From IMG/VR virus record IMGVR_UViG_3300050192_000013, positions 3,705 to 67,704 of that record: 64,000 nt of DNA; one strand, given 5' to 3'. The notes under the pieces were generated by a model. That model was not told where the DNA came from. It was given only the letters and a program-made list of their open reading frames with translations, and ran no database searches. This document shows positions 17,176 to 63,860 of this stretch, piece by piece (positions within the stretch are counted from its first letter, which is position 1; the number at the start of each line of letters is the position of its first letter). Origin of the DNA: a virus. Made by a program: the position numbers and the translations under genes.

Positions 17176-17176
17176 G

Positions 17177-17491: not shown

Positions 17492-17507
17492 TACTCGACC
17501 ATCCTCG

Positions 17508-17720: not shown

Positions 17721-17725
17721 ACGAT

Positions 17726-17905: not shown

Positions 17906-17912
17906 ATGGTTA

Positions 17913-18170: not shown

Positions 18171-18176
18171 ATGGAA

Positions 18177-18264: not shown

Positions 18265-18272
18265 CGGTTAGG

Positions 18273-18762: not shown

Positions 18763-18959
18763 TGCGCCGTGCCGTGCTGGATCATATGCGCGCGGTGCGG
18801 GACAGGCCACGATAACCGCGGAAACCTAGTTACTGCGGTTATCGCGGCACGCGAGACGTAGCCGGGTTGCCCGCGCGTTGGTGTGTTTTCCGCAGGCGCA
18901 GCGGGCTTTGGTGAGGGGTGGGCGGCCGGCACCTTTGCGCTTGCCGCCCCAAGTGTTAT

Positions 18960-19322
18960 TCATCGATCCACCCTGCCCGCAAACCGCTTGAAATCGGCGG
19001 CTCTTTTGAATCGTGCGTCAGCCTCCATGCGGTCGAGTAACGCGCTTTTGCAGCGCATTCCGTCAAATACTACCGTGTCGCGCATCTCGGGCGACCACAG
19101 AGTCACTTTATGCGCCTCTCGGTCGGTGACCGTGTAGCCCAATTCGGCGAGCGATGCGGTTAAAGCGGCAGCAACGTTATCGAATCTTTCCCGCGCAACC
19201 GCGTAGGTTTCGTCGGGATAACGAATCGTGGACATGGACTCGTGATCCACGAGCGGACTGACGATTGCGCTTAGCGCCCCGATCCGCTGCGTATCTGGCC
19301 GTTTCTGTTTGGCTGTTGCCAT
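18960..19322 (-). CDS. Hypothetical protein
   Basis: RBS AGGAG; upstream CTGACA-17-CATAAT promoter-like sequence. Confidence 0.6.
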   Translation of the reverse strand: MATAKQKRPDTQRIGALSAIVSPLVDHESMSTIRYPDETYAVARERFDNVAAALTASLAELGYTVTDREAHKVTLWSPEMRDTVVFDGMRCKSALLDRMEADARFKRAADFKRFAGRVDR

Positions 19323-19694
19323 TTCTGTATCTCCTATCTTGATTATGTAGCACGCCGCGCAAAATGTCAGCATTGAATTTGTAGCTTTTCTCGCCTCGGG
19401 CGAAGATTTTAGCGAAGGAAGGGCGAAGGTATAATACCGCCCTCGACCCCGGGCCGCCCCCGTCGTCTTCCACTGCACTTGACAATACATTTAAAGCCGT
19501 GCTTAAATTCTAGTCAATGCTTCATCCTGGAAGGTCGGATGCGTCGGGCGGTAGCGGAACCTCCCGCCCGATAGCACTTCATTCTTCCTTTCCCTTCCAA
19601 ATTAAGCAAAACAGCACCCGCTTTTGTAACGCGGCGTAACGCCCCACCGGCACGCGCCGGTTACCCATCAGGGTCCCACAACCCCAATCACGCC

Positions 19695-20036
19695 ATGGCG
19701 AAATCCGTTCGCATCATCGACAGTTCTGGATCAGAATCGCGCATGAAATTGAAGCGCGTTCTCGAACACCATACAGCCGGCAGCGGCGAGTTCCATCGCG
19801 GAACATTCTACTTCCGCCGCGCGTCCGAAGTCTCCCCCATCCTCGCGCAAGCCGGATTGCAAGCGGACCATCGGCCCAGTCTGGCAGACAGGCTTTCCGC
19901 ACTCCCGTGCTGGCCGGATACCGATGGCCGCAGGTACACTGACGGCGTTTCGATTGAGGGCTTTCTACCCTATCCGCAGCCTTCCCTATGCACTGCCGGG
20001 CTGAAGTACGCGGGCATTGCAAACTTCGGAAAGTGA
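19695..20036 (+). CDS. Hypothetical protein
   Basis: 113-aa ORF. Confidence 0.5.
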   Translation: MAKSVRIIDSSGSESRMKLKRVLEHHTAGSGEFHRGTFYFRRASEVSPILAQAGLQADHRPSLADRLSALPCWPDTDGRRYTDGVSIEGFLPYPQPSLCTAGLKYAGIANFGK

Positions 20037-20131
20037 TGGTAAACTGTTTGTTTGTACTATTGATTGGTTCGATTTAAGCCCTACCGATAGTGCTCATGCT
20101 TTGCGCACGAATGGGCAATACGTCTTGGGTT

Positions 20132-20215
20132 GGGCCAGTCGTTCAACTTAGTTACGGCGGCCAGGATACCGGGCTAGAAACCCGGAGATACGGGTTCACG
20201 TCCCGCTTTGGTCCA
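20132..20215 (+). tRNA. Atypical tRNA-like element, nominal anticodon AGA
   Basis: Acceptor GGGCCAG/TTGGTCC; D stem GTTC/GGAT with 19-nt loop; anticodon stem CCGGG/CCCGG with loop CTAGAAA; T arm CGGG-TTCACGT-CCCG; no encoded CCA. Confidence 0.6.
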
Positions 20216-20496
20216 ACCCATCAACTACTTGATTCCCATGTTCCTGATTACATCAACGACGGCTGCGAACGGCGAACGGCTTGTGCGGAATCGCGGGCTA
20301 AATCTGGCGCGAACGGCAGCGGCTCAGCGTAACTTCCAACGGACCAATGTATCGACCAAACTATGCCCTGGCCGACGCGACGGGAGCGCTGGCTGTGGCC
20401 GTAGGATCTCCGCGAATAAGGAACAGTGCGCAGCGTGCCAATCCTAATCAACCCCAGGGGTCGAATCGGCCCCTGTAGTTCCACTCTATAAAAATC

Positions 20497-21798
20497 ATGG
20501 CACTTGAAATCGAAATGTGGCCCACGGACAAACCTGTGGATTATGCGCGTAACGCCCGCAAGATCACAGAGAAGGCTGTCGATAAAGTTGCCGCGTCAAT
20601 CAAGGAATTCGGATTTCGTCAACCCGTGGTCGTGGATAAAGAAGGCGTTATCTGCATCGGGCATGTGCGCCGGCGTTCCGCGAAAAAGTTAGGGCTGGCA
20701 GAGATACCAGTTCACATCGCCTCAGATCTGACTCCTGGTCAGATTAAAGCCTTGAGAATTATGGACAATAGGAGCAGCGACGAAGTGCAGTTCGACTTCG
20801 AGCTACTTGGTCCCGAACTACTCGACTTGAAGCTACTCAACATCGACCTCGCGCTAACGGGATTTGATATGCCGGAGTTGGACCGCATCCTAAACGTGGG
20901 CGGCGCGACCGAGGGCGAGGACGATGTACCCGAGCCGCCCGTTAACCCGGTAACGCGGTTAGGTGACATGTGGCTGCTGGATAGCGCGGCTAAGGGCGCT
21001 AGCGGCGAAACGCTCCAGCATCGCGTGTTGTGCGGCGACAGCACGAAGGCGGAAGATGTCAGCGTGCTGTTGGGCGGCGTGCCTGCGCCGTTCCTGATGT
21101 GCATCGACCAACCATACGGTGATTCGTACGATCCTGAGTGGCGTCTAGACGCTGGCTTGAATAAGCCGTGGCAAACGCGTGCTGAAGGTAAAGTAAAGAA
21201 CGACGACCGTGTGGATTGGTCCGCTGCTTACGCGCTATTCCCTGGCGACGTTATCTACGCGTGGCATGCGGGCATCCACGCAGGGGAAGTGGCCGTTGGC
21301 CTTCATTCGCAAGGGTTTCACATCCGCGCGCAAATCATCTGGGCAAAGCCCAGTTTAGTTATCGGGCGTGGCCATTACCACTGGCAGCATGAGCCTTGCT
21401 GGATGGCTGTCCGTAAAGGAAAAACTACCCATTGGTCGGGCGACCGCAAGCAGTCGACTCTCTGGCAAGTCGAGAATATGCATCGGACGCAAGGCAATGT
21501 GGATGACGGGAAAACGTCACACGCAACTCAAAAACCCGTAGAGTTGTACAGGCGTCCAATCCTAAACCATACCAAAGCGGGCGACGCAGTCGAAGATTGC
21601 TTTCTCGGATCAGGTACGTGCCTCGTGGCTTGCGAGTTGACGGAACGCGTCTGCTACGGATGCGAGATCGAACCAAACTACGTTGATATGGCGGTGATTA
21701 GGTGGCAGAATTTAACGAAGCGCACCGCCGTGTTGCACGGGGATGGGCGTACTTTCGCTGAGGTGGAATGCGAGAGGGCGCAAAAGGCTGCCGCGTGA
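20497..21798 (+). CDS. ParB/Srx N-terminal domain fused to N6-adenine/N4-cytosine DNA methyltransferase
   Basis: YARNARK..V..VA.SI.EFGF.QPVVVD..GH.R; HRVLCGDST; variant DQPY; H.TQKPVEL; DCFLGSGT. Confidence 0.88.
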   Translation: MALEIEMWPTDKPVDYARNARKITEKAVDKVAASIKEFGFRQPVVVDKEGVICIGHVRRRSAKKLGLAEIPVHIASDLTPGQIKALRIMDNRSSDEVQFDFELLGPELLDLKLLNIDLALTGFDMPELDRILNVGGATEGEDDVPEPPVNPVTRLGDMWLLDSAAKGASGETLQHRVLCGDSTKAEDVSVLLGGVPAPFLMCIDQPYGDSYDPEWRLDAGLNKPWQTRAEGKVKNDDRVDWSAAYALFPGDVIYAWHAGIHAGEVAVGLHSQGFHIRAQIIWAKPSLVIGRGHYHWQHEPCWMAVRKGKTTHWSGDRKQSTLWQVENMHRTQGNVDDGKTSHATQKPVELYRRPILNHTKAGDAVEDCFLGSGTCLVACELTERVCYGCEIEPNYVDMAVIRWQNLTKRTAVLHGDGRTFAEVECERAQKAAA

Positions 21799-38242: not shown

Positions 38243-38449
38243 ATGGCCGCATCCGTCAGTGGGTCGAAGACTTGCAGCACCACGCTATCGCCAAGCCTAA
38301 CGGCAAGCACTCTTACTACGTTGCTGGCTGTCGCGCCAGAGAACATGACACTAAAGCAAGTGCATCAGCTTAACGATGCGCTTTTACGCGTGAAGGGCGG
38401 GGGCGAGATGTTGGACGGCATTACTACCGTTGGGTCGCTGCTCTCTTAG
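38243..38449 (+). CDS. Hypothetical protein
   Basis: RBS AAGGAGA. Confidence 0.45.
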   Translation: MAASVSGSKTCSTTLSPSLTASTLTTLLAVAPENMTLKQVHQLNDALLRVKGGGEMLDGITTVGSLLS

Positions 38450-38922
38450 AACGCGCGTTTAAAGCGTTCCTTCGCCTTATTGAGAAGTTGCATCGATTCG
38501 GTATCGCCTCCGTGGTCCGGGTGATACCGCAACGCGGCAGCGCGAAAACCAGCTTGAAAGATGGCGTTAATAATATCCTCCGGACTGTCCGATTTGTTAA
38601 AGCAGGGTGCATTGTCCGGAATAGGCATAGTGCTAGGCGGAGCCCGTTTTTCAAGTTTGGAAATCTTCGACAGTGCATCAGATAGGTGCTGGCTCAAAAA
38701 GGCTACTTGGCTTACGGCACCAGCGAACTCGCGTTGCACTTCTGCGACCTTGGCGCGAAGTCGAACAATAGCATCGTCCTTCACTGCGATCTGCGCCGCG
38801 TGTATCCGCAGCCCCTCGGCAACGCCAGCAGCGCGCGTTTCCCTGAGCAGCAGATCCATCGCGTTTGCGTTAGGCGCGTTGTTCATCTGGAACAGAAACG
38901 GGCTTCCGATGCTTTCAGCCAT
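38446..38922 (-). CDS. Coiled-coil protein with C-terminal J-domain (DnaJ-like)
   Basis: GFRAAALRYHPDHGGDTESMQLLNKAKE (HPD motif); extended -10 TGaTATTAT lies 6 nt before the ATG. Confidence 0.75.
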   Translation of the reverse strand: MAESIGSPFLFQMNNAPNANAMDLLLRETRAAGVAEGLRIHAAQIAVKDDAIVRLRAKVAEVQREFAGAVSQVAFLSQHLSDALSKISKLEKRAPPSTMPIPDNAPCFNKSDSPEDIINAIFQAGFRAAALRYHPDHGGDTESMQLLNKAKERFKRAF

Positions 38923-39977: not shown

Positions 39978-40682
39978 ATGCGTAAAACAATCGCTCTACT
40001 ATTCGCGCTTGCCGCGTGTTTGGCAGCACAAGAAACGGTAGACCACAGGAATGCGCAGCAAACGTTTCCAGTGCGCGTTAGCCAGGCAACTCCAGGCACA
40101 TGCACGCAGTATGAGTGGTACATCAACGCTACGACTGGCCTTACATATCCATGCATCGCTCCGAACGTTTGGGGTAACCCATTTGGTGCAAGTAATGTCG
40201 TCACTCAACTGACCGCCCCAACGTCCTCGATCAGCACAGCAGAGACAGCGATCCTAGCCTACAGCGTTCCAGCCAACGCGCTTAACGTCGGGACGACCTA
40301 CGGAATCCACTTCAGCGCCACTGTGAACGATGCCTCGACGCCATCCGGCACGCTGACCTATAACGTTCGGTTTGGAACCACGACTCCGCCGTCAGGCAAC
40401 ATCGTGGCCACGCTACCGATCACGCTAAGTACGACCGTATCGAGCCTGAGCGCCACGCTTGGCGTCGATTGCTACGTGACCGTGATAACTACCGGCTCCA
40501 GCGGCACCGCCGGCGGGTGGTGCAACGGCTACGGCGCTGGCGGCGGATACTCCAACGTCACGACTTCCAACGTCACGATAGACACCACGCAGATTCAAAA
40601 CCTTCAAGTAACTGGCGTTCTTAGTGCTGGTGGTCCAACGACGACCGTGTACGCTGGGTACGCGGCGCTAGTGAAGCAATAA
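39978..40682 (+). CDS. Signal-peptide-bearing beta-rich protein
   Basis: MRKTIALLFALAACLAA/QE; P.TCT..EWYI.....YPC.A.N.W motif. Confidence 0.6.
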   Translation: MRKTIALLFALAACLAAQETVDHRNAQQTFPVRVSQATPGTCTQYEWYINATTGLTYPCIAPNVWGNPFGASNVVTQLTAPTSSISTAETAILAYSVPANALNVGTTYGIHFSATVNDASTPSGTLTYNVRFGTTTPPSGNIVATLPITLSTTVSSLSATLGVDCYVTVITTGSSGTAGGWCNGYGAGGGYSNVTTSNVTIDTTQIQNLQVTGVLSAGGPTTTVYAGYAALVKQ

Positions 40683-45819: not shown

Positions 45820-48800
45820 ATGGGCGACTTCGGACCATTAGAGTTAAAAATACCGGTTTCCGTTCCTGGCATGGCTGAGTTTGAGAAACTCGGCACCACC
45901 ACGGATTCTCAGACGGATAGGACCAAGCGTCTATCTGCCGCGCTGCAGGACTACCTCGCCAAGCAACAGAACGTTATCTCCGCACAGAAGACCTACGCCG
46001 AGCAACAGGCAAAGACGGCAGAGTTAACAGAGAAGTACTGGGACCAACAGACAGCCGCTATGCGCCGGATGAACACAGCGCATGAAGCCGCCATTAAGGA
46101 ACAGGCAAAACGCGAAGAGGATCTAGCCAAGAAACGCGAGTCTGCCAATCAGGCGCAGGCTGATTCGATCCAGAGATGGATTACTAACCCGATGGCTGCT
46201 GCTGGCGACGCGGCCAAGAACTTCGCCCTCCGTTTCGGCGAGGCGGGCATACAGGCCGTTGGGGCCGTGGTTGGCGTTGCTGCGCTTGGAGCGGCAATCT
46301 TCAAGTTGACGAGTGAGGTATCCCAATACGCCAGGGAACAATCCAACTTAGCGGCCAGTACCGGCATGAGCGTCGGTGAAGTGCAAAAATTTTCGCGCAT
46401 GGCGGAAATCGCCGGTGTTCCCGTCACTGGGCTGATGCGTGCCGTGCGGCAAATGTCGCAGGCGATGGCCGATGGAGGAGAAGAGGGAAAGAAGCAACAA
46501 AAAGCACTACGCGAACTAGGGGTCGATTATCAGAAGTTCGGCGATGACGTAGGGTCGCTATTTGAGGAGACCGCGCGCAAACTGCAAGCGATGCCGCAGG
46601 GCGGCGAAAAGAACTGGATCGCGCAAGTTCTGGGATTTGGCGGACGTGGGGGCGCTGGCTCGATAATGCCAGTAATCAACCAGTTCTCGGACCTAGAACA
46701 AAAAATCCATGGCGTAATGACCGACGCCGATATCCAGCGAGCCACGTTGTACGCGCAGAAAGTTAGCGAGCTAGGACAGTGGGTTGACCAGTTAAAGCAA
46801 AAACTGGCAATGCCATTTATTCTGGATATCACGTTCCGCGATGGGCCTGCGTTAGGTTTATTGCGTAAGTTGGGGTTCGGATATCCAACAAGTAACGTCC
46901 CGACCAACGATCCCCATGCGATTGGATATGCTGGGAGTGGCGCAAAATCAGCAGGCGGATACCCTGATTATTTGGTTACGGATAGCGCAGCCAATGACAC
47001 TATTGAAATCCCTGTAACGAAAAGCAATGCTGATTTGCGCGCTGCCGCGTTGGCCGCATCGGCGACAGCAACGCAGGCACGCATCAAGCAGTTGCTTGCA
47101 ACGGAAGCGCAGCGCGGTGGCCGGGATAGCCAGATCGGACAACTCCAGGCGCATCTTTCGACCATACCCTCATATGAATCATTAAGTGCGGATGCTGTGC
47201 GCCGGGACGTAAGCAAGGATGTGCAAGACAGACAGCAGACCGAGGCTAAGATTCGTGGCATTCAGGCGGCTGTAAAGGCCGAAGAGAAATTGGCGGAAGC
47301 CCGTAAGCAAGCCACTGCGTGGACCGAACGTGCTAAAGAGGCCGAAGACAAGGCCGGGAACCGCACACCGCTTGAGCGCCGGATGGGAGAGTATACCGCA
47401 ATAGAAGACCAACGCAAAGCGCGGATGGCAGAACTTCAGAAAACATTTCCGGGTGGTGTCCCTGCTGATTTACAGCAGAGCGCCACGAACGCGGCGTTGA
47501 TGGAACAGGCCGGAAGCATCAAAAAATACAACGAAGCAATCGCAAAGGCGACCGATGAAATAAATAAACTGTACAGCAAGATGCAGTTCGATGTCACGGA
47601 GGAAGCCAAGCAGGGGCTAACTAAAAACCTGAAAGACTTCTCCATCGACCATCCATTGATAAGCCGCATGCTTGAAGACGCTACTCCGACTGCTCCGTAC
47701 ATTCCCGGAATGGATACCCAGGATCGTATTAAGCGGTTACAGATAGCCAGCGGCGCGCAGTTGAAATTCGCCCAAATGCGAACAGCTACCGAAGGTGGCA
47801 GAATCGGCCTGTCGCAGTCGATGGATGACGAGGAAGCCAAGAAGGTATACGACCTTCAGAAGCAATACAACGATACCGTACTTGAAGGCCAGAATCGACA
47901 ACGCGCAAACGAGAAAGCGCTGGAGGAGTTACAGGACCGCCGTTACTCGAACGCCATCAAGTATGAAGAGCAGATGGCGGATTTGCGGCTCAAGCAGGAG
48001 CAGGAATTTGCCAGCAAGGGCGTTGAACTATTTCACGCACTGACAACAGGTCACGGTGCATCGTTCGTTCGTGGGCAGGCCGTCCACATGGGCGATACTG
48101 TGATGAGCAACTTCCTACAGCAATATATTGCCCCCACCGCGTTAAAGATGATTCCGCAAGCGGGCGAAGGATTCCTTGGTAATCTACTTAAAGGCACGCC
48201 GTTCGCGATGGGTAGGGATGACCCGGCGATGGCGGCTAAGGACAACGCGGAGAAGATAAAGGAAAACAGCGACAAGACGGCGTTCAATACTAGCTCGATG
48301 GACCAATTGAACGCCCAAATCGCCACGATGGTTAGCCTGTTCGGCGGTACTCCGTCCAACGTGCCGACCGATGCAAGCGCCAATTTAAGCCCGCTCAGCA
48401 CGGCGCTAGGCGGTCCCGCGACGCTGGCCGGAGCCGTCATAGGGACGCTAGGACTAGGGAGCGCGGGTCTCGGCGGCACAGCGGGCGCGCTAGGGGCCAC
48501 AGCGTCGAATCTGACGGGTGGGCCAACCAGCATGATTGGCTCGATACTGAAGTCGGTGGGACTGGGCGGTTCTCCGTCCACTGGCGCGTCCGGTTCTTCC
48601 GCGCTTAGCGCCATCGCAGGATTGTTCGTCGGTGGCCCGTCCGGTACGGTCCAAGCCGGCGCACAGGCGCAGACGGACGCCATAATCAACGGCATCGTGA
48701 CAAATCCGCTTGGGTCGCCCGTAGCAATGCCGGGGATGCCTGATCTGTCCAGCAGTCCATACGGGCTGTCGTGGCCCGGAACAGACATCGATGGGGGCTG

Positions 48801-49644
48801 GGGCGCACAGGCGCTGCCGGGGATGCCTGACATATCCGGCAGCAGCCCATGGAATGCAAATAACATGGGGCCGGCATCATCTCCTAGTGGCGTTGCAGCA
48901 GCCGCTGGACTTACCGCATCGGCGTCTAGCGGTATGTCAAAAACATCCGGGGAATTCGCTAGCGGCGTAAAGGACCCAATTGGCGTGCTGTTTGGCCAGG
49001 GCGGTACCTACTCGCCCAATACCGCGCAGACAGCTGGCGCGATTGTAGGATTAGCTGGTGCTGGATTCGGCGCGTTCAAGGGTATCTCAGAAATGACCAA
49101 AGGCGGCGCGCAGAACATCGCGGGGGGACTCGGGACCACACTGATGTCCGTAGCGCCGTTGACCGGTCCAGCGGCGCCTTTCGTGATGGCCGCCGGCCTG
49201 CTATCCGACGTTGTATCGGCGGCCTTCGGTGACCCGCGCGCTAATCGCGCCAAGGATATTTCTAAAAAGTTGCAATATTCGCAATTTATGGCCCCCGAAG
49301 CGCTCAACGTCACAATGGACACGTCCGGTAATTACGCGGACTACAGCAGCAGCGGACAGGCGCGCGGATCGGACCTCAGCCCGTGGCCTATCGTGCAGCA
49401 GCCATATTATGATCCGTCTCACAGTACGTGGGTGCCCGGTAGAATCATTTCGCAGTTTGGCGGACCTTCCGGTATTACTTCCTCGCCAGCGCCTACCGTG
49501 AATATCGCGGCGTTGGATTCGCAGAGCTTCCACGATGCCATGACGCGCAATTCGGATATGCTCGAAGACGTCATGACGCACGTGGCGAGCAAGGCCAGCG
49601 GGCCGTTCCTAGGGACGCTAAGGAATCAGTTGGGGAGCGCTTAA
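45820..49644 (+). CDS. Tape measure protein
   Basis: 1274 aa, Ala/Gly/Gln-rich helical sequence, follows the chaperones. Confidence 0.92.
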   Translation: MGDFGPLELKIPVSVPGMAEFEKLGTTTDSQTDRTKRLSAALQDYLAKQQNVISAQKTYAEQQAKTAELTEKYWDQQTAAMRRMNTAHEAAIKEQAKREEDLAKKRESANQAQADSIQRWITNPMAAAGDAAKNFALRFGEAGIQAVGAVVGVAALGAAIFKLTSEVSQYAREQSNLAASTGMSVGEVQKFSRMAEIAGVPVTGLMRAVRQMSQAMADGGEEGKKQQKALRELGVDYQKFGDDVGSLFEETARKLQAMPQGGEKNWIAQVLGFGGRGGAGSIMPVINQFSDLEQKIHGVMTDADIQRATLYAQKVSELGQWVDQLKQKLAMPFILDITFRDGPALGLLRKLGFGYPTSNVPTNDPHAIGYAGSGAKSAGGYPDYLVTDSAANDTIEIPVTKSNADLRAAALAASATATQARIKQLLATEAQRGGRDSQIGQLQAHLSTIPSYESLSADAVRRDVSKDVQDRQQTEAKIRGIQAAVKAEEKLAEARKQATAWTERAKEAEDKAGNRTPLERRMGEYTAIEDQRKARMAELQKTFPGGVPADLQQSATNAALMEQAGSIKKYNEAIAKATDEINKLYSKMQFDVTEEAKQGLTKNLKDFSIDHPLISRMLEDATPTAPYIPGMDTQDRIKRLQIASGAQLKFAQMRTATEGGRIGLSQSMDDEEAKKVYDLQKQYNDTVLEGQNRQRANEKALEELQDRRYSNAIKYEEQMADLRLKQEQEFASKGVELFHALTTGHGASFVRGQAVHMGDTVMSNFLQQYIAPTALKMIPQAGEGFLGNLLKGTPFAMGRDDPAMAAKDNAEKIKENSDKTAFNTSSMDQLNAQIATMVSLFGGTPSNVPTDASANLSPLSTALGGPATLAGAVIGTLGLGSAGLGGTAGALGATASNLTGGPTSMIGSILKSVGLGGSPSTGASGSSALSAIAGLFVGGPSGTVQAGAQAQTDAIINGIVTNPLGSPVAMPGMPDLSSSPYGLSWPGTDIDGGWGAQALPGMPDISGSSPWNANNMGPASSPSGVAAAAGLTASASSGMSKTSGEFASGVKDPIGVLFGQGGTYSPNTAQTAGAIVGLAGAGFGAFKGISEMTKGGAQNIAGGLGTTLMSVAPLTGPAAPFVMAAGLLSDVVSAAFGDPRANRAKDISKKLQYSQFMAPEALNVTMDTSGNYADYSSSGQARGSDLSPWPIVQQPYYDPSHSTWVPGRIISQFGGPSGITSSPAPTVNIAALDSQSFHDAMTRNSDMLEDVMTHVASKASGPFLGTLRNQLGSA

Positions 49645-49869: not shown

Positions 49870-50277
49870 TCAGTACGTAGCCGCAGGCATCGGCAACTTA
49901 ACCGTCTTCGTTACGACCACCTGCCCCATGGCCGCTGTGACCGCGATGCTTTTGATGACCACATTCGGCGCATCGGATACCATCCAAGGCATCAGTGAGA
50001 CGCGGTTGCCATCCACTACCGCGCTATACGGTATCGACTGCGTAGCGGTTCCGGCGTGACCGTTCAGCGAAAACGATACGGTTGCCGTGTACGAATCGAC
50101 TATCACGTCCTGGCTGGACGAGAAGAGAACCAAGACGCCAGCGGTTCCAGTGCAGAATATTCCGCCTTGGAATTGCGAAAGAGGCGGCGTGCAGCCGACC
50201 GGGAAGAATTGAAAGTTGACCTCGGCAGCGAATGCCGGGGCGATTAACAGCAGCGTGGAAAGCAGTAAACGTTTCAT
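49870..50277 (-). CDS. Secreted hypothetical protein
   Basis: MKRLLLSTLLLIAPAFA/AE signal peptide; RBS AAGGAG. Confidence 0.65.
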   Translation of the reverse strand: MKRLLLSTLLLIAPAFAAEVNFQFFPVGCTPPLSQFQGGIFCTGTAGVLVLFSSSQDVIVDSYTATVSFSLNGHAGTATQSIPYSAVVDGNRVSLMPWMVSDAPNVVIKSIAVTAAMGQVVVTKTVKLPMPAATY

Positions 50278-55800: not shown

Positions 55801-56890
55801 CGGACCACCGGACCAACTTGCAACCCAGATCGTGTTCAAGTGGAAGCGCGCCATTCACGCTGGCGATTGGGGCGCGGCCTGTTCCGCCGTAGCGCATGTT
55901 AGTACCGGAGTGGGAAGCATTACTTTCGCGGGACACAGCTTCGGACCTACCAGCGTCTTCCTGGTACTGCTGGGCAACCCAAAAGGGATTACTACTCAGG
56001 TTCCACTAGTAACGTTCGCCGTGGCCGGCACTGCCGGGGCTACTTTGACGGTCACTCCAGATCCTACCGCAATTGGCGTAGTTGCTGGTTCGGTATTCGC
56101 TCAAGTTAGTATCGGCCATCTCGATTCCACATCAACGATTATATCGAACGCGAACTTCGTGAACACCTTTTCGGCTGGTGGCTTGACGTCTGGAGCGGAA
56201 GTCGGAAATGTCGTTATGATTACTTCCGCACTAGGCAACCCACTCGGATTGCAGGGAACGATCATAGCCAATACATCGACAACTATAACGCTGTCATCCC
56301 CGCTTCCACTCCCCGGATTATCCGAGGTTCTGTTCGTCGTTCTGGAGCCAGCATGGCAGGCAACGTATGGCGTGCCGTACACCGCCAGCAAACCGGAAGT
56401 GTCCCCTGCGCCGTTAATCGCCACGATGGATGCGACGAACTACGAAGGCGAGACCGTATTTGTTCAGGCGTTTACATCCGACTCTCAAGAGGACTTAGCA
56501 ATCGCGGCGTTTTCGCCGTACCGGTTCCTGTACTTGTGGGGAGATCAGGGTACGGGTTCGTGGGGGGCTAAAGTTCTTACATACACTTCCACTATCACGC
56601 CAGATTACACTAATGGAGCAACTCAGTACGTCGAGCTAACTGGCAATGTTCACTTTAACGCGATAATCAATCCCCCATCGGGCGCTGGTCAGCCGTTCGA
56701 CTTATTCGTAGTGCAGGATTCTGTCGGCAATCATACCGTCACGTTCGACGCCAGCTATGGACCGTTTGGAGGATTCGGAATTGTCCCTGGCAATCCAGGT
56801 CTTCTACCTAATGCCCAAACCCGGTACCAGTTCTCCCAATTCACCACTCCGGGGGAATGGATTTTGAAGAATGCAGCGAGTACTTTATGA
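52856..56890 (+). CDS. Tail tip / host-specificity (gpJ-like) protein
   Basis: 1344 aa; RC...FP..A, CDYTK..C..RG, P.LYGT.W, NPVWIL.D motifs; follows Dit. Confidence 0.8.
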   Translation: MALTTVAASKEQSPLGYQPLCLVTLTSQDNTTIYLCSYPLNTGEGGYVYEGNSYLARVTAYSIAATQSRSELGIDRIPSVTLKLADPDFYLWNNFELNSTRGFCGAQLVLILILKDINPADGTFQYSSDSVQKFVGICDSPNREMDGVTLTLTATSNHNMGKVYLPNWSVQQRCSNVFPATAAQRLSGATDPSSQYYFCGYSPDVTGTDPDIGGSAARGNEIAGSPYTVCDYTKASCVARGMYTEDSSSRQTGRFSGIQWNPTTREARSKSYVTGKNVTVFDAANDSIFTSRFPMLYGTQWVTYPINANELGDGNSTRGETVICQGAILNYGVQNVVLNGIILPQNLGAGSTDPLERWNYINNECGSRNGTATGDVPWNGQGDPYGNLACIEWVVYRELLDSSQLPTFQILASGPRVWTYQTIATYNNGLVTLTGENFYVQGAGSFIVIIAGNSLSAANGVWTATTFAGGPPGTVTLTGAPSGTGTGGFICAQLKTSNPVWILADVMKKANWAATEFDWNSWYLAALTCDIQISYLDLTGATATHAAYNCGFVIQQRRTAAEIVNMLLRSFNAQLVYNAQTGLLQLIVRQSVADQQQTAITGSNYNTAVGSIHADGTSGNGYWAYLFDETTIYRPANDGPPTFRLYTLPNVQRPNCIIVAFQDEDNSYVQDSLRLLDEEAMARIGGPSGTQIENDEQLQQIGITNFDQAVRVSNVYMAEQNYGNPYSQPRGTIYVEFETTVRGEHLTSGAIFGLNLINPAISMQSFRVLSITPTGDYERVRIVASWHNDIWYTWLFGQAPAPFYSQLSQGIPARLPFPWQPYGTQDLSTGATDYGMGIAVLYTPNADGTALAQIQIYGCGPVNQFSPGLNPPLCDMQGLSANTGGSLLNGQAVYMFLCGVDSAGLLTALSQACTAVMPGTYDGVTGANTATIPELYWPTGIVSYILFGGRSQNSLAAQQTGAVVGTTNPSSLTITSLVNGNYGPPDQLATQIVFKWKRAIHAGDWGAACSAVAHVSTGVGSITFAGHSFGPTSVFLVLLGNPKGITTQVPLVTFAVAGTAGATLTVTPDPTAIGVVAGSVFAQVSIGHLDSTSTIISNANFVNTFSAGGLTSGAEVGNVVMITSALGNPLGLQGTIIANTSTTITLSSPLPLPGLSEVLFVVLEPAWQATYGVPYTASKPEVSPAPLIATMDATNYEGETVFVQAFTSDSQEDLAIAAFSPYRFLYLWGDQGTGSWGAKVLTYTSTITPDYTNGATQYVELTGNVHFNAIINPPSGAGQPFDLFVVQDSVGNHTVTFDASYGPFGGFGIVPGNPGLLPNAQTRYQFSQFTTPGEWILKNAASTL

Positions 56891-58173
56891 CGAACCGAAT
56901 ACTGAGACTGGCGCTTTTGAGTTTGGCGGCTTGCGGTTTGGCTATGCCCCAAAGCACCCAGGGCTTTAACCAGATAGACCTAAACCCACTCTCTGGCAAT
57001 CCCGGCGTGATATACATCTACGATCCCAGCGCCTTCAACACCCTCACCGGAGAACTCACAGCCAGTCTTCTCGCAGGCATGGACATTACGGTTGGATCGT
57101 ATAAGAATGGAGCCACATGGTTTCCCACCAGCACATCCGCCGCTGAGTTAATAGTCCAGACAACCGGGTTCAATTTCTACCTAAACGGCAGTCTGGACCC
57201 AGTGACTCCCACGCCTTTCACCCCTACTCTTGCGGCTTTCATAGGACCCACACTAAGCACTTTCACCGGCGGCATAACTACCACCGAGTTTCACCTCCAA
57301 ACCACCCCAGCCTATTCCCTCCTAACTTACGGCGGAAGCCCCACGTTGATGAACATCAACACAGACGGGTCTATCCTCCTTGGGCCGGGGCCGACATCTA
57401 CATCTCCAGGACTGTACTTCAAAAACAGCGTCAGTGATATCTGGCAGATCCAAGCTACAAACACCGGAACTCAATCGCTTCTTACGTTGAATCAAATCGT
57501 GGCGCTTAATCCAGAGTTCGACATTGCCAGTCCGATCACCGTAGGCATTCTCGGAAAGTTGCTCGTGCCCGTAGAGGAAGACATTGGGACAGGCACGGAG
57601 CAATGGGATGTCACCACGTCAACGATTAGTGCCGGATTCGGTTGCCCTGTGGGGACGTGCGATGTTCTGCTCTTGACCTCCAATATAGGTGCTACTTCTC
57701 CAACGCTGGAAGTAACTGGTGGCTTATACCTTAACGGCGGCCAGATGGCCGTTACTGGCGCTGGGTTTATCGGCGGAAATCTGAGCGTAGGCGGAACTAC
57801 CGTATTATTTAGTGGCGCTCCGTTCGTTAGTGGTGGGGCGATGTGTCTGGACACTTCCGGATTTCTAGTCGTTGGTACATGTGACCTTGCCAGTACTATC
57901 GTATCCAATACCTTCTCCGCATTGCAGACATTCTCTGCTGGTATAGATATCACAGGAGGCGGAATTACCGGAGTTGTTGGGTCTTCCGATTTCTCTGGGG
58001 CCATGACAATTCATAACACTCTAACCGTCACAAGCGGCTCGCTTGTACTTGGAGCCGGAACGCACCTTGTGTACTCCTGCACAACCGCTGGCGCTGTGCT
58101 ACCAGCTGGGTCACTGACGCTCGTAGCGGCGGCTTGCGGAAGCGCGACCGCCGCGCCCATGAACTTCCCGTAA
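56887..58173 (+). CDS. Fibre-like Gly/Thr-rich protein with N-terminal signal peptide
   Basis: MTNRILRLALLSLAACGLAMP/QS; beta-rich repeats such as NLSVGGT, TLTVTSG. Confidence 0.65.
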   Translation: MTNRILRLALLSLAACGLAMPQSTQGFNQIDLNPLSGNPGVIYIYDPSAFNTLTGELTASLLAGMDITVGSYKNGATWFPTSTSAAELIVQTTGFNFYLNGSLDPVTPTPFTPTLAAFIGPTLSTFTGGITTTEFHLQTTPAYSLLTYGGSPTLMNINTDGSILLGPGPTSTSPGLYFKNSVSDIWQIQATNTGTQSLLTLNQIVALNPEFDIASPITVGILGKLLVPVEEDIGTGTEQWDVTTSTISAGFGCPVGTCDVLLLTSNIGATSPTLEVTGGLYLNGGQMAVTGAGFIGGNLSVGGTTVLFSGAPFVSGGAMCLDTSGFLVVGTCDLASTIVSNTFSALQTFSAGIDITGGGITGVVGSSDFSGAMTIHNTLTVTSGSLVLGAGTHLVYSCTTAGAVLPAGSLTLVAAACGSATAAPMNFP

Positions 58174-58192
58174 CAAACAGCCAAAGGAAACC

Positions 58193-60142
58193 ATGCGACA
58201 ACTGCTAGTCATATTATCCCTGTGCGCCGGAGTGGCCTTCGCGCAGCCGACACCACCAACGCAGACAACCGTTAGCGATACCGTGTTCTTTAGCTACGGG
58301 TCTCCAGCGAAAGGTGCGAATTGCGTCATGTCCATAACTGGACCGGACAACGGGCCGACAAGCATCAGCACAACTACGGTATTTCCCTCCACAGTGACGG
58401 TGGTGATACGTGCCGGTGTTGCGCTGTTTGCGATTACGCCAAATTATAATAGTTCGACATACAGCGCGGCGGTCACCTGCCAACCTCCGTTTCAATCTCA
58501 GTTCACGATGTATCTCTCGATTCCGGTGTCTGGCTCTCCGGTGACATTCTCGCAGATTATTGTCCCCAATCCTTTCGTTCCGGTCACGACAATCAACGTC
58601 TCGCAAATCATAGCGAGTGGATTCTCCAATGGACAGGTAATCTGCTGGTCTTCTACGGCTAACTCATTTGGCCCGTGCGTTCCTACAGCAAATACGCTAT
58701 TCAGCGGCATCCTACCTGGAACAAATACCGGCGCGCTGGTGGTTGGAACGAATGGCTCGTTTACCTTCTCTGGCGCTGGGATAATCAACGCGAATGAGGT
58801 GAACGGCGTACTGCTTAGTGGGTTAGCGACTGGCCTCTTGCTCAACACTTCCGGCGTGCTTACTGCGGCGGTCGATTGTACGAATTACGTCTCGCCTACA
58901 TGCCTCGCCAGCGGCGCGCTCCCGATATCAGTCACCACCATCGCGGGAAGCAGCAACGTCACAGTGAATGGCTCTATCGCGGCTGGCACGATTGGCACAC
59001 CCGGTTCGTTACACCTATCGGACGCGAGCGGGTTAGACGGTGGATTTATACAGCCATCCGTTGGCGCTGGCGTGCTATGGACGCTACCGACAGTGGAAGT
59101 GGCGAACTCCGCGTTGGAGACTAATCCATCCACGCATCAACTGTCATTCATTCCCGTCTTGAATCTCGGCTCCGTTGGACCGCAAACGATCTATAACCCA
59201 ACCGGATCGTTTTACACCACGACCATATGGCAGGAATCGTCATCTCAGGCCGGTGCGACTTGCGGGCTTTCGCCAGTTGGGTGCCAAGCCGAGATCCTAT
59301 TGCAGGACAATGCCGGTTCACCCGTCATGTACGCTGGCGCGAGTTCCGGTATGGCGCTCGGGAATGGTACCGTCTGGGATTGGTTCTACAGCAGCCCGAA
59401 TATCGCGCTATCGTCTGCCGTACAACTGCGCTGGAATAGCGCCGACACCGTACTTGGTTCTGGCGCTGGTTCTGCCGATGTGGCGCTAGGTCGCGAATCT
59501 GCTGGCGTCCTGGAAGTGCAGAATGGCGGCGCGGGGAGAGGGACACTGGATATAGGCGCGTTGCAGATTGGTGGGGCCGCGATTGCCTATGGTAATATCG
59601 CTGGGTTCCCTTCGGTGTCTGAGTTGGTCCTTAACGGCTCAAGCAGCGGAACTTGTCCAATCACGGTTTCCGCAACTGGCGGAAATGCGACCATCTGCGG
59701 GAACTTCACGGTAGCGGCCAATGGAGCGGTCGGGTTGGGCGCTGGAAGTACAGGTCCAATCTCGAATTATTCGGGTGAAGGCGTGGGACAGATTGGCACA
59801 GCCAATGCGACAACGTACTATTTGTGGCCGGGCGGCACATCGCCGACGTTAGCATCATCCACGGGGCATCCTGGAATTCCAGTTCCAGCAACCTGCACGG
59901 CGCGCAATCTCTACGTGGAGGCGTCCGCTGGTCCGACTAGCGCTGGTGGAACCGTTACCCTCTACCACAACGCCACCGCGGCTGCGTTGACCTGCACGCT
60001 GCCTTCTGGTTCCAGTGTGAACTGTTCGGACACAACGCACACCGTCGCGTTTACTGCCGGAGCGTTGTGGTCTATCGGCGTACTGACCACCCAAGCCACG
60101 GACACCACAACTAACGTAACAGCGAGCTTTCAATGTCAGTAA
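58193..60142 (+). CDS. Fibre/adhesin-like protein with N-terminal signal peptide
   Basis: MRQLLVILSLCAGVAFA/QP; C-terminal LTCTL....CSDTTHTV motif. Confidence 0.65.
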   Translation: MRQLLVILSLCAGVAFAQPTPPTQTTVSDTVFFSYGSPAKGANCVMSITGPDNGPTSISTTTVFPSTVTVVIRAGVALFAITPNYNSSTYSAAVTCQPPFQSQFTMYLSIPVSGSPVTFSQIIVPNPFVPVTTINVSQIIASGFSNGQVICWSSTANSFGPCVPTANTLFSGILPGTNTGALVVGTNGSFTFSGAGIINANEVNGVLLSGLATGLLLNTSGVLTAAVDCTNYVSPTCLASGALPISVTTIAGSSNVTVNGSIAAGTIGTPGSLHLSDASGLDGGFIQPSVGAGVLWTLPTVEVANSALETNPSTHQLSFIPVLNLGSVGPQTIYNPTGSFYTTTIWQESSSQAGATCGLSPVGCQAEILLQDNAGSPVMYAGASSGMALGNGTVWDWFYSSPNIALSSAVQLRWNSADTVLGSGAGSADVALGRESAGVLEVQNGGAGRGTLDIGALQIGGAAIAYGNIAGFPSVSELVLNGSSSGTCPITVSATGGNATICGNFTVAANGAVGLGAGSTGPISNYSGEGVGQIGTANATTYYLWPGGTSPTLASSTGHPGIPVPATCTARNLYVEASAGPTSAGGTVTLYHNATAAALTCTLPSGSSVNCSDTTHTVAFTAGALWSIGVLTTQATDTTTNVTASFQCQ

Positions 60143-61986
60143 AATCTATCATTTTCGCCTTATTGTCACTCCCGTTGTTCGGACAGATTGTCGTGACGCC
60201 GCTTGCGCTGCCGACCGAGCCAATCAATAACTATTATAGTTTCTCGGAAAAGCCCGGAACGGTGAATACGTTCGCTGCGACTGGCGGAACTGGCCCATAC
60301 ACGTTTGCGGTGACAAGCGGGTCTTTGCCTACAGGGTTGACGCTGGTATCCAGCGGGAGCATGACTGGAACGCCTACAATAGTCGGCACATCAACTTTCA
60401 CCGTCACGGCGACCGACTCACTTAGCGCCACAGGGGCGCAGGCGTATACACTCCAGACTATCGCTACGGAAAATGGCTGCACTCTCTGGGGATGGGCTTG
60501 CGATGGGGTAGATACTGGCGTATCCGCTACAATCCTACCTTCTCTTGGCGACACGCTGCACGATGTAGGCGCGGCGCTGAAGGTTATCGACGCAACGAGT
60601 GCTGTAGTGGTGCAGCCGCGTATTCCGCTGTCGGGACAAATTATCCCGGCTAACTCTTCGTTCATCGGCGCAAATCCCGGCATCACTGCGGCGGCGGTAG
60701 TTCCGTTCATGGACATGATGGCCACGCCCCCGCCGAATGGTCCAGGCATGACCACGCAGTCGCTATTCCCATGGCCCGCCGCGTTTGCTTGCGACTCTTC
60801 GTATGCACCACTTTGGGGCGGTACGTACCCTTGCGACTGCCCTGGCGGAGTTACGTTATCTTACGACTCAAATCCTCCCCCAGGAACCAATTACACGGCA
60901 AACCCGCACTGCTACTCGCTCTATTACGTTTACGACAACGCGGTGTCCCACGCAGTCGCCAAAGGCTATACGCTGCGCTTTGCGCTTCCGCCGAATGGCG
61001 TGACCGTTAATCAATACGTCCCGGCCCCTCCGACTTCACTCTGCAATCTTACCACCGGGAGCGTAACGATAGCCGCATATACGGCGTGCATGTTGCCTCT
61101 TTTAGAAGCGATGACATATAGGTACGGTCCAGTCGTCCCTACTTACTGGATTCAGGTTTACCTTGAGCCATACGGCTTCATGCAACTCATCAACCCGTCG
61201 AATCCGTTCTCTGTCACCGATGCGGCGCAATACATCGTGGCGGCAAGCACGGCAGTTCATGCGATTCGACCGGGACCGACGACTAAGGTATTTGCGACGG
61301 CACTTGGGACTTCGCGCGTGACGACGTTTCCCGGCAGCACGGATATCTGTTACTGGTACGATTGGTCTGGCGGTGCGGCAGCGGGGAAGACGCCGCCACC
61401 GGATTGCAGCGCGGCGGTAACGAACACGTATCAATTTGTCGATGGCCTCGCTATTGATTGGTTCTCTGGGCAGTGCGAACAGGCGACGCCGGGGACTCCT
61501 GGCGGTACGGGATACAACTATTCCGATCAGGCAATTTGGTTCCGTGGCAATTTCTTAAGCGCAAACTCGAATCCATACGGCAAGCCGGTGATTGTCGGCC
61601 AAACGACGCCGCCTTGGTGGTGTCCGCCTACTGGAAGATCCGACGATCCGCACTCAATCCAAGGACCGTTATGGAGTTTCTGGACCTCATCTGGGCTAAA
61701 CGCCGCATGGCAGACAACTATGGCGCGCGCATGGTCACGCATGGGAATCACCGAGGCCGCGTACTTCTGCGATCTGCCGCTGTTCTTCCAGGAGTCGATG
61801 CCGAATATCATAATCAACAACTGCAACACAGCGGTGTCGATCCAGAACGCCATCGCGAGCGGACTATCGCTGAATCAGAACGCGGTCAACTGGGGATATC
61901 TAAATACCCACGGCGCAAACGCGGCGCTTCAGGGAAAGGCCAGCATTTCAGGGTGCGGCGGCATCGGCGCGACCTGTAACCATTAG
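60133..61986 (+). CDS. Signal-peptide protein with putative Ig (He_PIG) domain and GH clan-A-like barrel
   Basis: MSVKSIIFALLSLPLFG/QI; ATGGTGPYTFAVTSGSLPTGLTL..SG.MTGTPT..GT.TFTVTATDS; LEP / IDWF / KPVIVGQ motifs. Confidence 0.65.
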   Translation: MSVKSIIFALLSLPLFGQIVVTPLALPTEPINNYYSFSEKPGTVNTFAATGGTGPYTFAVTSGSLPTGLTLVSSGSMTGTPTIVGTSTFTVTATDSLSATGAQAYTLQTIATENGCTLWGWACDGVDTGVSATILPSLGDTLHDVGAALKVIDATSAVVVQPRIPLSGQIIPANSSFIGANPGITAAAVVPFMDMMATPPPNGPGMTTQSLFPWPAAFACDSSYAPLWGGTYPCDCPGGVTLSYDSNPPPGTNYTANPHCYSLYYVYDNAVSHAVAKGYTLRFALPPNGVTVNQYVPAPPTSLCNLTTGSVTIAAYTACMLPLLEAMTYRYGPVVPTYWIQVYLEPYGFMQLINPSNPFSVTDAAQYIVAASTAVHAIRPGPTTKVFATALGTSRVTTFPGSTDICYWYDWSGGAAAGKTPPPDCSAAVTNTYQFVDGLAIDWFSGQCEQATPGTPGGTGYNYSDQAIWFRGNFLSANSNPYGKPVIVGQTTPPWWCPPTGRSDDPHSIQGPLWSFWTSSGLNAAWQTTMARAWSRMGITEAAYFCDLPLFFQESMPNIIINNCNTAVSIQNAIASGLSLNQNAVNWGYLNTHGANAALQGKASISGCGGIGATCNH

Positions 61987-61990
61987 GGGC

Positions 61991-62019
61991 TTGACAGAAT
62001 TGGCGGAAGGTTATAAACT
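61991..62019 (+). promoter_or_regulatory. sigma70 promoter
   Basis: TTGACA-17-TAAACT. Confidence 0.65.
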
Positions 62020-62031: not shown

Positions 62032-62178
62032 ATGGAAGAGACCATCAAAACAGTCCAACTGAAACCGGACGTTCACAAAAAGCTAAAGGCGCACATCAAG
62101 CGCGAGGGTGGTCATATCTCCAGCATGGTTGACCGGCTAGTGCGCGAAGGGTTGGCGATGCGGAAGGTGAAGACTTGA
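62032..62178 (+). CDS. Ribbon-helix-helix DNA-binding protein
   Basis: MEETIKTVQLKPDVHKKLKAHIKREGGHISSMVDRLVREGL; read manually. Confidence 0.65.
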   Translation: MEETIKTVQLKPDVHKKLKAHIKREGGHISSMVDRLVREGLAMRKVKT

Positions 62179-62591
62179 AAATAGACTCGCACGGGCGCAA
62201 CGTAACGTTCACGATAGCACTAACGCTGAGCATGATGTTCTTGGTTCCGATGGTCTTGGTTCTACTCGCAGATACACCCAACGATCCCAAGCCAACCATG
62301 CGTCTCGCCGCTCCAATTCAAGGCGACACTGCGCGCAAATTGGCAATCCTGCGATTCCATATGGTGGACGCCAAGGATCGCAAGGCCGCGATGGTGCAGC
62401 AAGCGGAGCAGCAAGGCGACGAAGAAATCAAGGCTACGGCTAACGAGTACCTAAAGGGTATTCGTGAAGCGCAGGCAGCCGAAGGCGTTGCAGGAGACTG
62501 CAAGCCAAGTAGTGATTTGACCTGGATCAAAAATGACGGGACGCCGTGCATGGTGGCCGTCAAGGAAAAACAAAAAGGAGCAGCGAAATAG
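62175..62591 (+). CDS. Membrane-anchored/secreted coiled-coil protein
   Basis: N-terminal hydrophobic helix then coiled coil. Confidence 0.55.
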   Translation: MKIDSHGRNVTFTIALTLSMMFLVPMVLVLLADTPNDPKPTMRLAAPIQGDTARKLAILRFHMVDAKDRKAAMVQQAEQQGDEEIKATANEYLKGIREAQAAEGVAGDCKPSSDLTWIKNDGTPCMVAVKEKQKGAAK

Positions 62592-62593
62592 TT

Positions 62594-63079
62594 ATGCCGA
62601 ATCCGTTTCAGTTTTATCCCAAGTTGGCGACCGTGCTGGCCGACAATCCGCTGTGGGCTGTCGATGCCTTGGTGTATCAGGCAGGCCCAGCCGATTTCCC
62701 CGACGGTAAGTACATTCAGGTCGTGGACGTGTCGAGCGATGCCGTGACTGCCGAGTACGCCAATGAGTTGCTGGCGATCTTCAAGGCGCTCGGGTATAAG
62801 GGCGCAAATTCCCTGACCACGAAGCAGGGCGAAACAATCGAGTACGCTATTATTCCAAATCCACAGAAGCCTACGGACGACAGGGATTTGTACGCCTTCG
62901 TGGAGCCGGGACCTGGATTCGCTTATGATGGGCTGCTCTCTGAGTACTTCGCCGGCCAGAGCGAATACAACGATGTTAACGGCGGCGGTGTCGGTTCGCC
63001 GGGTGCGTGGACGCTACCCAAGGGGTCTCCGGAGCCGGTGTGGGTTCCGTCAGTTTACACGCCGCCCGTTGCGGCGTAA
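62594..63079 (+). CDS. Hypothetical protein
   Basis: RBS AAGGAG. Confidence 0.6.
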   Translation: MPNPFQFYPKLATVLADNPLWAVDALVYQAGPADFPDGKYIQVVDVSSDAVTAEYANELLAIFKALGYKGANSLTTKQGETIEYAIIPNPQKPTDDRDLYAFVEPGPGFAYDGLLSEYFAGQSEYNDVNGGGVGSPGAWTLPKGSPEPVWVPSVYTPPVAA

Positions 63080-63241
63080 CAAGTTTGGGCCGGTGCGGGT
63101 AATGCCGCCCTCCTTCGACGGGAGAGACCAAACCGACCCAATTCAAGGTTCTGGGTGAGAGCGGATACCGAGGTAGCGCTACGGGCTCCGACTCAATACG
63201 GTGAAGAACCCGGACATCACCCAGATTCAATTTTGCCCGGA

Positions 63242-63274
63242 TTCGCCGCCCGTGAAGGTGGCGTGGATTGAAAC
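63242..63274 (+). CRISPR. Solitary CRISPR-repeat-like unit (type I-C-like); not an array
   Basis: TT-CGCCGCC-CGTGAA-GGTGGCG-TGGATTGAAAC: 7-bp stem plus the canonical 11-nt I-C 3' handle. Single copy, no cas genes in the window. Confidence 0.7.
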
Positions 63275-63287
63275 AAGGAGAAACTCA

Positions 63288-63860
63288 ATGACGACGACAT
63301 TCCCGATTTTCACGCTGGATTACACGCGCCTCACGAAGCAGATGGCGGCAGTGCTGATGGTGCTGATTATGGCCTGCATGGTGGCCTGTTCGACCGCCCA
63401 GGTTGTGACGGATCTGGAGTTGGCGACAACCATTATCGACGACGCAGGCACCATCGCGGCAGGGCTTGGATTCATCCCCGCTCCGATAGCCACAATCCTC
63501 ACCGATGCGGCGCTCTGCATTCAGTCCGGGCTCGTCCCGGCACTACAAGCGGGCGGCAAGATCGGAACGGTGATCGGGACCGCACTGCACGCCTGTTACG
63601 TGGCAGTCCAAACCACCATCCCAACAGGCACGGATGCGACGTTGGCCGCGAAGGTGGATGCGGAGGTTGTGCAAATCACCAAACTGCTCGGTGAATACGG
63701 TATTACGATTCCTCCCGCTACTCCGGCACCCACAGCGAGCGCGATGGTAGCGCGGGCGCAGGCGATGACCGTCATTATGCCGAAGTTGAGGGCCGTGGAT
63801 AGGGAGAAGTTGGCTGCGCTGGCCGCGCACGTGTTTAAGCCGCTGCCGCCGGTGCGATAG
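63288..63860 (+). CDS. Putative lipoprotein
   Basis: Basic-hydrophobic N-region ending MVAC/S; RBS AAGGAG immediately follows the repeat. Confidence 0.6.
   Translation: MTTTFPIFTLDYTRLTKQMAAVLMVLIMACMVACSTAQVVTDLELATTIIDDAGTIAAGLGFIPAPIATILTDAALCIQSGLVPALQAGGKIGTVIGTALHACYVAVQTTIPTGTDATLAAKVDAEVVQITKLLGEYGITIPPATPAPTASAMVARAQAMTVIMPKLRAVDREKLAALAAHVFKPLPPVR

Follow-up and report, generated by a model that had tools for sequence, protein, structure and literature searches.

Why would proteins encoded in the tail-fibre slot of a tailed phage begin with export signals, when the assembly of such phages is taught as wholly cytoplasmic? The question is raised by a 64,000-nucleotide stretch of viral DNA (hereafter the window; bases 3705-67704 of the single 68,528-base virus record IMGVR_UViG_3300050192_000013), whose gene layout suggests a long-tailed phage with a gene transfer agent (GTA)/lambda-like tail tip. 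Three consecutive large genes, P1, P2 and P3, follow the tip gene, and a further gene, P4, lies in the head-tail operon (Table 1). An original prediction, made from the sequence alone, stated that all four begin with signal peptides of the classical n-h-c form and that exported fibre-like proteins would be a paradox. Our examination of the locus bore out both statements: the open reading frames (ORFs) and their starts were confirmed, and the signals sit on fibre-type proteins in the tail-fibre slot. The comparisons described below support the conclusion that these N-termini behave like genuine, selected signals for the Sec pathway and signal peptidase I.

Each of the four N-termini has basic residues in the n-region, then a hydrophobic stretch free of charges, then small residues in the c-region, and the uncharged run ends at Gln in every case (MTNRILRLALLSLAACGLAMP↓QS in P1, MRQLLVILSLCAGVAFA↓QP in P2, MSVKSIIFALLSLPLFG↓QI in P3 and MRKTIALLFALAACLAA↓QE in P4). 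By the heuristic -3/-1 rule, small residues occupy the required positions ahead of the Gln in P2 (AFA↓Q), P3 (LFG↓Q) and P4 (LAA↓Q), and the predicted Gln at the mature N-terminus holds for these three proteins; it is not supported for P1, which has Pro at -1. Shine-Dalgarno motifs (AAGGAG/AAGGA) precede the starts of P4 and P2, and none of the in-frame starts downstream of the hydrophobic runs has a Shine-Dalgarno-like motif. This largely answers the concern that the true starts might lie beyond the hydrophobic segments. When a loose rule for an n-region followed by an h-region (n+h) was applied to the whole 68.5-kb record, 8 of 100 greedy ORFs passed, those besides P1-P4 being two spurious short ORFs, a transmembrane anchor (62175) and a minus-strand gene (49870-50277). 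Among the ORFs of at least 400 aa, three of eleven passed, and these are P1, P2 and P3, consecutive after the tip gene. The prediction had also pointed to two LAAC lipoboxes. The strings are present in P1 and P4 (P2 has L-S-L-C, which is not a lipobox), but the lipobox is not conserved, because the signal of a P1 relative on the contig L001 contains no Cys at all; the string in P1 is probably incidental. The LAAC of P4, which may be a lipobox, is kept in a 97% identical relative only and is hence uninformative.

The signals change in sequence and persist in form among the relatives. L001, a 101.8-kb metagenome contig, has a P3 identical to that of the window, a P2 with 98% similarity and a P1 that is mosaic, and its gene calls agree with the starts chosen here. 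The P1 signal of this contig, MKRLFIALLAVPLFA, is unrelated in sequence to that of the window and has the same n-h-c form with a canonical cut site (LFA↓QTQGF); the mature chain begins with the QTQGF motif, which is found in the window too as Q(S)TQGF. The P2 signals of the window and L001 differ by conservative changes only, and P4 is 97% identical, with an identical signal, in a relative from IMG/VR (L113). An exhaustive HMMER scan retrieved 241 relatives of P2; an n+h N-terminus is present in 51 of the 77 that have at least 300 aa, and the uncharged run ends at Gln in 33 of these 51. The argument that consistent retention of the signals speaks for function is strengthened by these results, since the property is kept through sequence turnover, follows the style of the host and is widespread in homologues. 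All four P2 homologues that we looked up lie in phage or phage-derived contexts beside other signal-bearing large genes: seven such genes stand ahead of a lysozyme gene in L006, among them those for a GDSL esterase and for a PKD protein of 1251 aa, two stand just before a lambda-type portal in L005, and L008 has two. In L005 (225-3753, corresponding to 58193-61986 of the window), the P2-like gene is directly followed by a P3-like gene and both are signal-bearing; the product of the latter is 38% identical to P3 and lacks the He_PIG domain. The head module of L005 differs from that of the window (lambda-type portal, S49 protease, Phage_cap_E). Because a signal-bearing P3 homologue follows a P2-like gene in this unrelated phage, P2 and P3 look like a cassette moving between phage backbones.

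The Gln at the end of the signals appears to reflect the host. One P2-family gene lies on a 152-kb bacterial contig (L007), and because the CoaX (pantothenate kinase) of this contig is 72-81% identical to those of Terriglobia/Acidobacteriaceae genomes, the host can be linked to Terriglobia (Acidobacteriota). In a small, heuristic sample of 400 kb from each of two Terriglobia genomes (G001, L092-L111; G004, L116-L135), the first polar residue after a signal-like run was Gln in 15 of 31 and 16 of 36 proteins (31 of 67 in total, 46%), compared with 3 of 30 and 1 of 36 (4 of 66, 6%) at control positions of the same proteins. The phage signals thus seem to copy a Gln-ending habit of the host, and this habit resembles the Q-rule, which the literature confines to Bacteroidetes (Bochtler et al. 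2018, PMC5837995; Szczesniak et al. 2023, PMC10653852). As under that rule, cleavage by signal peptidase I would expose Gln, here in P2, P3, P4 and most family members, and Gln stands at +1 of the uncharged runs of P1-P4. Unlike under that rule, the host is linked to Terriglobia and not to Bacteroidota, and the type I glutaminyl cyclase PF05096 was found in only one of five sampled Terriglobia genomes (type II cyclases were not searched). Gln endings on nearly half of the sampled Terriglobia signals call the exclusivity of the Q-rule to Bacteroidetes into question. Phages of Porphyromonas have been described, in one report, to carry genes with the Q-rule signals of their host, which were taken as envelope modifiers (Matrishin et al. 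2023, PMC10367356). Because a host-specific signal, conserved as a property, occurs on many relatives, export is the parsimonious explanation, and from these sequence comparisons we consider the export of P1-P4, together with cleavage, to be likely.

P2 has the most telling architecture. Right after the signal comes an N-domain of ~250 aa, which is found in one gene each of L001, L005, L006, L007 and L008, and the protein ends in a domain of ~125 aa that is also C-terminal in many other proteins, whose lengths vary. The C-terminal domain is predicted to fold as a jelly roll (predicted local distance difference test score, pLDDT, 88; alignment of 40 sequences), contains four nearly invariant Cys, and resembles the trimeric knobs of the C1q/TNF type, including the Bdellovibrio Bd2439 fibre tip, BclA, the F-ENA tips and C1q; it also matches the tail fibres of phage 7-7-1, and numerous fibres with collagen repeats from phages as well as giant viruses. 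Encoded in the distal tail module and with a predicted fibre-tip fold, P2 is, as modeled, a true fibre with a C1q/TNF-like knob at its tip. A word-based homologue search with P2 as a whole was empty, the back-translated TCNDTTHTV pattern had no match in the genome contigs, and a PDB sequence search with the P0158 and P0194 N-termini returned no solved tailspike anchor. Pfam/NCBIfam profiles detected no Por_Secre_tail-type C-terminal domain, the mark of type IX secretion system (T9SS) cargo. We also considered the P2 N-domain as a candidate lambda Stf N-terminus and rejected it when the PF08400 profile gave no match. On the host side, a 1478-aa open frame of a Terriglobia genome (G001:C2:550187-551066; L089-L091) contains two tandem P2-type C1q-like knob domains.

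The other three proteins are less easily assigned. No known Pfam/NCBIfam family was found for P1 and P4, and a relation of either to the P2 knob was rejected by hhalign against the knob profile. The He_PIG immunoglobulin (Ig) domain of P3 shares 40-70% identity with Ig domains from surface proteins of bacteria, Acidobacteriota included, and the suggestion that these genes are captured host adhesins therefore holds in part, for P3. The 500-aa Cys-rich domain that follows has a single homologue, the one in L005, and an empty word-based search; its neighbours by language model and in the Atlas are Acidobacteriota He_PIG proteins and clan GH-A glycoside hydrolases, which we treat as a lead only, and an AlphaFold model of P3 residues 105-617 made without an alignment had a pLDDT of 32. 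The mature chains of P1, P2, P3 and P4 contain 6, 14, 16 and 4 Cys, respectively, all even numbers and mostly in close pairs, a pattern that fits oxidative folding and does not prove it.

The genes for P1-P3 are tied to the tip gene. The ATG of P1 overlaps the stop of the tip gene (ATGA), a gap of 19 nt separates P1 from P2, P3 overlaps P2 by 10 nt, and no terminator-like site was found at the tip-P1-P2-P3 junctions. The only strong promoter-like site (10 of 12 consensus positions) follows P3, while 9-of-12 matches occur throughout the region, and this site at 61991..62019 would mark the end of the tail operon that holds P1-P3. Because the junctions are tight, terminator-like sites are absent and the strong promoter-like site comes only after P3, these genes, with products of 428-649 aa, do not qualify as moron-like inserts. 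Compared with L001, the last ~110 aa of the tip protein and the first ~125 aa of P1, signal included, are swapped as one block, and the last ~65 aa of P1 are swapped as well, everything else being 91-98% identical. Fibre genes are commonly mosaic in this way; the exchange would fit docking of P1 on the end of the tip, and also a simple contiguous exchange around the tip's own receptor-binding end.

How, then, could exported fibres become part of a virion? In the pathway that we propose, P1-P4 would be made late from structural operons, cross the inner membrane via Sec, be cut by signal peptidase I just before the Gln, and fold in the periplasm, where the paired Cys could form disulfides. P1 (fibre-like), P2 and P3 (an Ig domain and a probable glycan-active domain) would constitute a peripheral host-recognition set, and tails assembled in the cytoplasm would acquire them only once holin and endolysin merge the two compartments, making this the last assembly step. 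Use in the virion is favored by the fibre architecture, the operon position and coupling, the mosaic ends, the cost of ~5 kb, and the homology-based labels of the proteins of the cultured phage Tunturi 1 (discussed below). P22 tailspikes and the fibres of lambda and T4 can join particles in vitro, and by this analogy a late addition is chemically plausible. We hold the whole chain, export followed by joining to the virion at lysis, as the best explanation, yet a tentative one that is less probable than not and in which the joining to the virion is speculative. The probability left over by the explanations discussed here belongs to mixtures, for example with P2 in the virion, and P3 and P4 not.

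A number of observations weigh against addition to the virion at lysis. To our knowledge, all studied tailed phages assemble their tails and fibres in the cytoplasm. The signal calls come from n+h heuristics and conservation, and the Pro at -1 of P1 breaks the -3/-1 rule, so that the canonical cut would lie two residues earlier (GLA↓MPQ). The tip protein itself ends in a variable domain and, like lambda J, the sole receptor-binding protein at the lambda tail tip, could be the sole receptor-binding protein of this phage, in which case P1-P3 would not be needed for the virion. The P2 N-domain matches neither PF08400 nor other known virion-attachment families and recurs in phages with different head modules, and the available flanks of these phages contain no homologues of the distal tail, tip and tape-measure proteins of the window; such a distribution suits attachment to a host structure no less than attachment to the tail. 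A domain shared in this way recalls the invariant surface anchor of the exported mosaic adhesive trimer (MAT) fibres of Bdellovibrio. Giant proteins with signals are also encoded away from tail modules, downstream of the lysis genes in L001 and ahead of terminase/portal in L007 and L005, and Tunturi 4, a siphovirus that infects the same host genus as Tunturi 1, has tail genes without signals.

Alternatively, the proteins may be exported and stay off the virion, acting late as surface or matrix factors. P2 would then be a C1q-like adhesin displayed on or released from the infected cell, in the manner of MAT fibres, and P3 a glycan-active enzyme; possible roles are to mask or destroy receptors, to loosen the exopolysaccharide matrix for the progeny, or to glue neighboring hosts to the infected cell. 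The export signals themselves, the sharing of the P2 N-domain among phages with different head modules, the P2-P3 cassette in another phage backbone, the giants outside tail modules and the variable end of the tip all count in favor of this explanation. So does the precedent of MAT fibres of Bdellovibrio bacteriovorus, which are located on the surface and in which the signal peptide is followed immediately by a conserved domain (Caulton et al. 2024, PMC10769870). In the architecture common to both, a Sec signal leads directly into a beta-rich N-domain that is conserved, and a shaft then carries C-terminal tips that can be swapped; in the PDB, the tip of Bd2439 ranks with the best matches to the P2 knob. 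MAT fibres differ in that they are encoded by chromosomal genes of the predator and sit on the predator surface, whereas P1-P3 stand at the end of a phage tail operon; the N-domains showed no relation in sequence, and the match in fold is modest (template modeling score about 0.5).

Phages are also known to export proteins encoded beside their tail genes, as lambda Lom and Cor and T5 Llp are. These proteins and the products of the Porphyromonas phage genes likewise use the host Sec pathway, and the Porphyromonas genes follow the Gln rule. They are, however, small accessory proteins or of unknown function, are interpreted as envelope modifiers and are often regulated on their own, whereas P1-P3 are fibre-type proteins of 430-650 aa inside a tail operon. 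An exclusive role outside the virion is disfavored by the lack of a separate promoter or terminator together with the tight coupling to the tip gene, by the large cost (5.1 kb for P1-P3, and ~12.4 kb of 63 kb in Tunturi 1), by the reach of Sec, which extends to the periplasm only with no outer-membrane route evident, and by the annotation, based on homology, of two Tunturi 1 proteins as tail spike and virion structural protein. Weighing both sides, we judge it somewhat unlikely, though nearly as probable as joining at lysis, that the proteins are exported and never join the virion.

The signal-like segments might instead be unused for the functional pool of the proteins, with the fibres assembling on tails in the cytoplasm. 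Export could be inefficient or shut down late, or the N-terminus could serve as a transient membrane tether or virion contact, removed, or not, by another route. Known side tail fibres and fibre-tip knobs offer a comparison (lambda Stf, T5 pb1, the fibres of Agrobacterium phage 7-7-1, and C1q-like knobs on collagen-repeat phage fibres). They share with the genes discussed here the position after the tip gene, modules at both ends that are mosaic, and a jelly-roll tip of the trimeric C1q/TNF type; unlike P1-P3, they are not known to carry a signal peptide, and they join tails in the cytoplasm. Our literature search found no paper describing signal peptides on tail fibres of tailed phages. Cytoplasmic assembly as the rule for tailed phages, the position and coupling in the tail operon, the co-exchange of the tip C-terminus with the P1 N-terminus and the non-canonical Pro at -1 of P1 would all be accommodated. 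However, the host-specific A↓Q ending across a large family is hard to explain without signal peptidase I and the periplasm, the Cys are conserved and even in number, and the signal sequence turns over while its n-h-c form is kept, making a purely cytoplasmic route quite improbable. Finally, although the calls are heuristic and the reading frame of P1 contains a further ATG upstream (56857) as well as a Met within the protein at residue 20, wrong starts or chance hydrophobic N-termini are largely refuted, and highly improbable, given the Shine-Dalgarno motifs at the chosen starts and none further downstream, the agreement with the L001 gene calls, the conservation in dozens of homologues, and the restriction to 3 of 11 large ORFs, all consecutive.

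A cultured counterpart exists. The first phages to be isolated on Acidobacteriota were the Tunturi phages (Demina et al. 2025, PMC11924767; signal peptides are not mentioned in that paper), and Tunturi 1 (PP887698), a podovirus, has signals on gp12 (1190 aa), gp13 (675 aa), gp14 (919 aa), gp16 (149 aa) and gp17 (1184 aa). The cut is A↓Q in gp12, gp13 and gp17 and A↓N-A in gp14 and gp16, and the homology-based annotation labels gp14 'tail spike protein' and gp17 'virion structural protein'. These genes lie between a tail protein and the endolysin (L115, 10371-23028), and the five proteins, ~4,100 aa in all, take up ~12.4 kb of coding sequence, or nearly one fifth of the 63-kb genome of this lytic phage. 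Tunturi 1 is thus like the phage of the window in being an Acidobacteria phage with signal-bearing proteins, here five, between a tail protein and lysis genes; it is unlike it in being a podovirus, and no homology of its proteins to P1-P4 was detected. If extended to a broad set of Acidobacteria soil phages, both siphoviruses and podoviruses, the proposal would be that recognition proteins travel via Sec, are trimmed to Gln, oxidized in the periplasm and added at lysis, and this generalization we regard as unlikely.

Export signals on fibres in the receptor slot would imply either that assembly includes a late step of a new kind, or that phages encode a sizeable class of exported adhesins and enzymes with targets in the host envelope or the soil matrix. 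If the former is true, tailed phages would have a two-compartment assembly pathway and could plug in disulfide-rich extracellular modules from host surface proteins. Either outcome bears on host-range prediction, on annotation, where 'tail fibre' is the routine label for such genes, and on how receptor-binding proteins are engineered. The cultured pair of Tunturi 1 and Tunturiibacter shows the same feature and makes the question directly testable.

Table 1 Features of the window discussed in the text (positions counted from the first base of the window).
Feature	Position	Strand	Remarks
T4-type large terminase	24331
Portal	26573
P22-coat-like major head protein	35642
P4, 234 aa, head-tail operon	39978..40682	+	strong Shine-Dalgarno motif; signal residues 1-17; 4 mature Cys
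Tape measure	45820-49644
DUF2460 distal tail protein	51872
Tail tip/host-specificity-like protein, 1344 aa	52856..56890	+	no signal peptide
P1, 428 aa, G/S/T-rich, fibre-like	56887..58173	+	signal-like residues 1-19/21 (56887-56949)
P2, 649-aa fibre	58193..60142	+	signal residues 1-17 (58193-58243)
P2 conserved N-domain	residues 18-270		followed by shaft
P2 C1q/TNF-like knob	residues ~515-649, 59735-60139
P3, 617 aa	60133..61986	+	signal residues 1-17; He_PIG Ig domain residues 20-108
P3 remainder			500-aa Cys-rich domain, 16 Cys; no assigned family
Promoter-like site TTGACA-17-TAAACT	61991..62019	+	consensus match only; directly 3' of P3 stop

The surroundings of these genes yielded several minor observations. 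No similar record was found among GenBank phages, with no match for the 45-64 kb stretch, P2, P0237 or an L006 neighbor; the tip protein and P1 have no relatives in IMG/VR, the tip homologue in L001 matches PF26209 weakly, and no tRNA genes were found. Downstream of P3, candidates for the lysis region (62175-63860, and 68085-68348 of the genome) comprise a transmembrane-anchored 138-aa protein, a lipoprotein-like protein of 190-219 aa and a small Cys-rich lipoprotein-like ORF that is o-spanin-like, and no endolysin was recognized within the window. L001 has an M15-peptidase-like ORF of 121 aa (15273-15638; by eye only) and, beyond its lysis-region genes, two more signal-bearing giants of 881 and 721 aa with GLG↓QT and LAA↓QT (15835-18480 and 18508-20673). 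The region 15835-20673 lies past the end of the 68.5-kb record, and therefore the record may be incomplete or the relative larger. Between the tape measure and the distal tail gene, a 135-aa minus-strand gene (49870-50277) that is kept in L001 (409-816) has a textbook signal peptide, MKRLLLSTLLLIAPAFA↓AE; its opposite orientation gives it, in contrast to P1-P3, the look of a classic exported moron. The head-tail operon is interrupted, just upstream of a 342-aa gene and P4, by a minus-strand ORF of 158 aa (38446-38922), which by eye ends with a J-domain-like HPD motif (YHPDHGGD).

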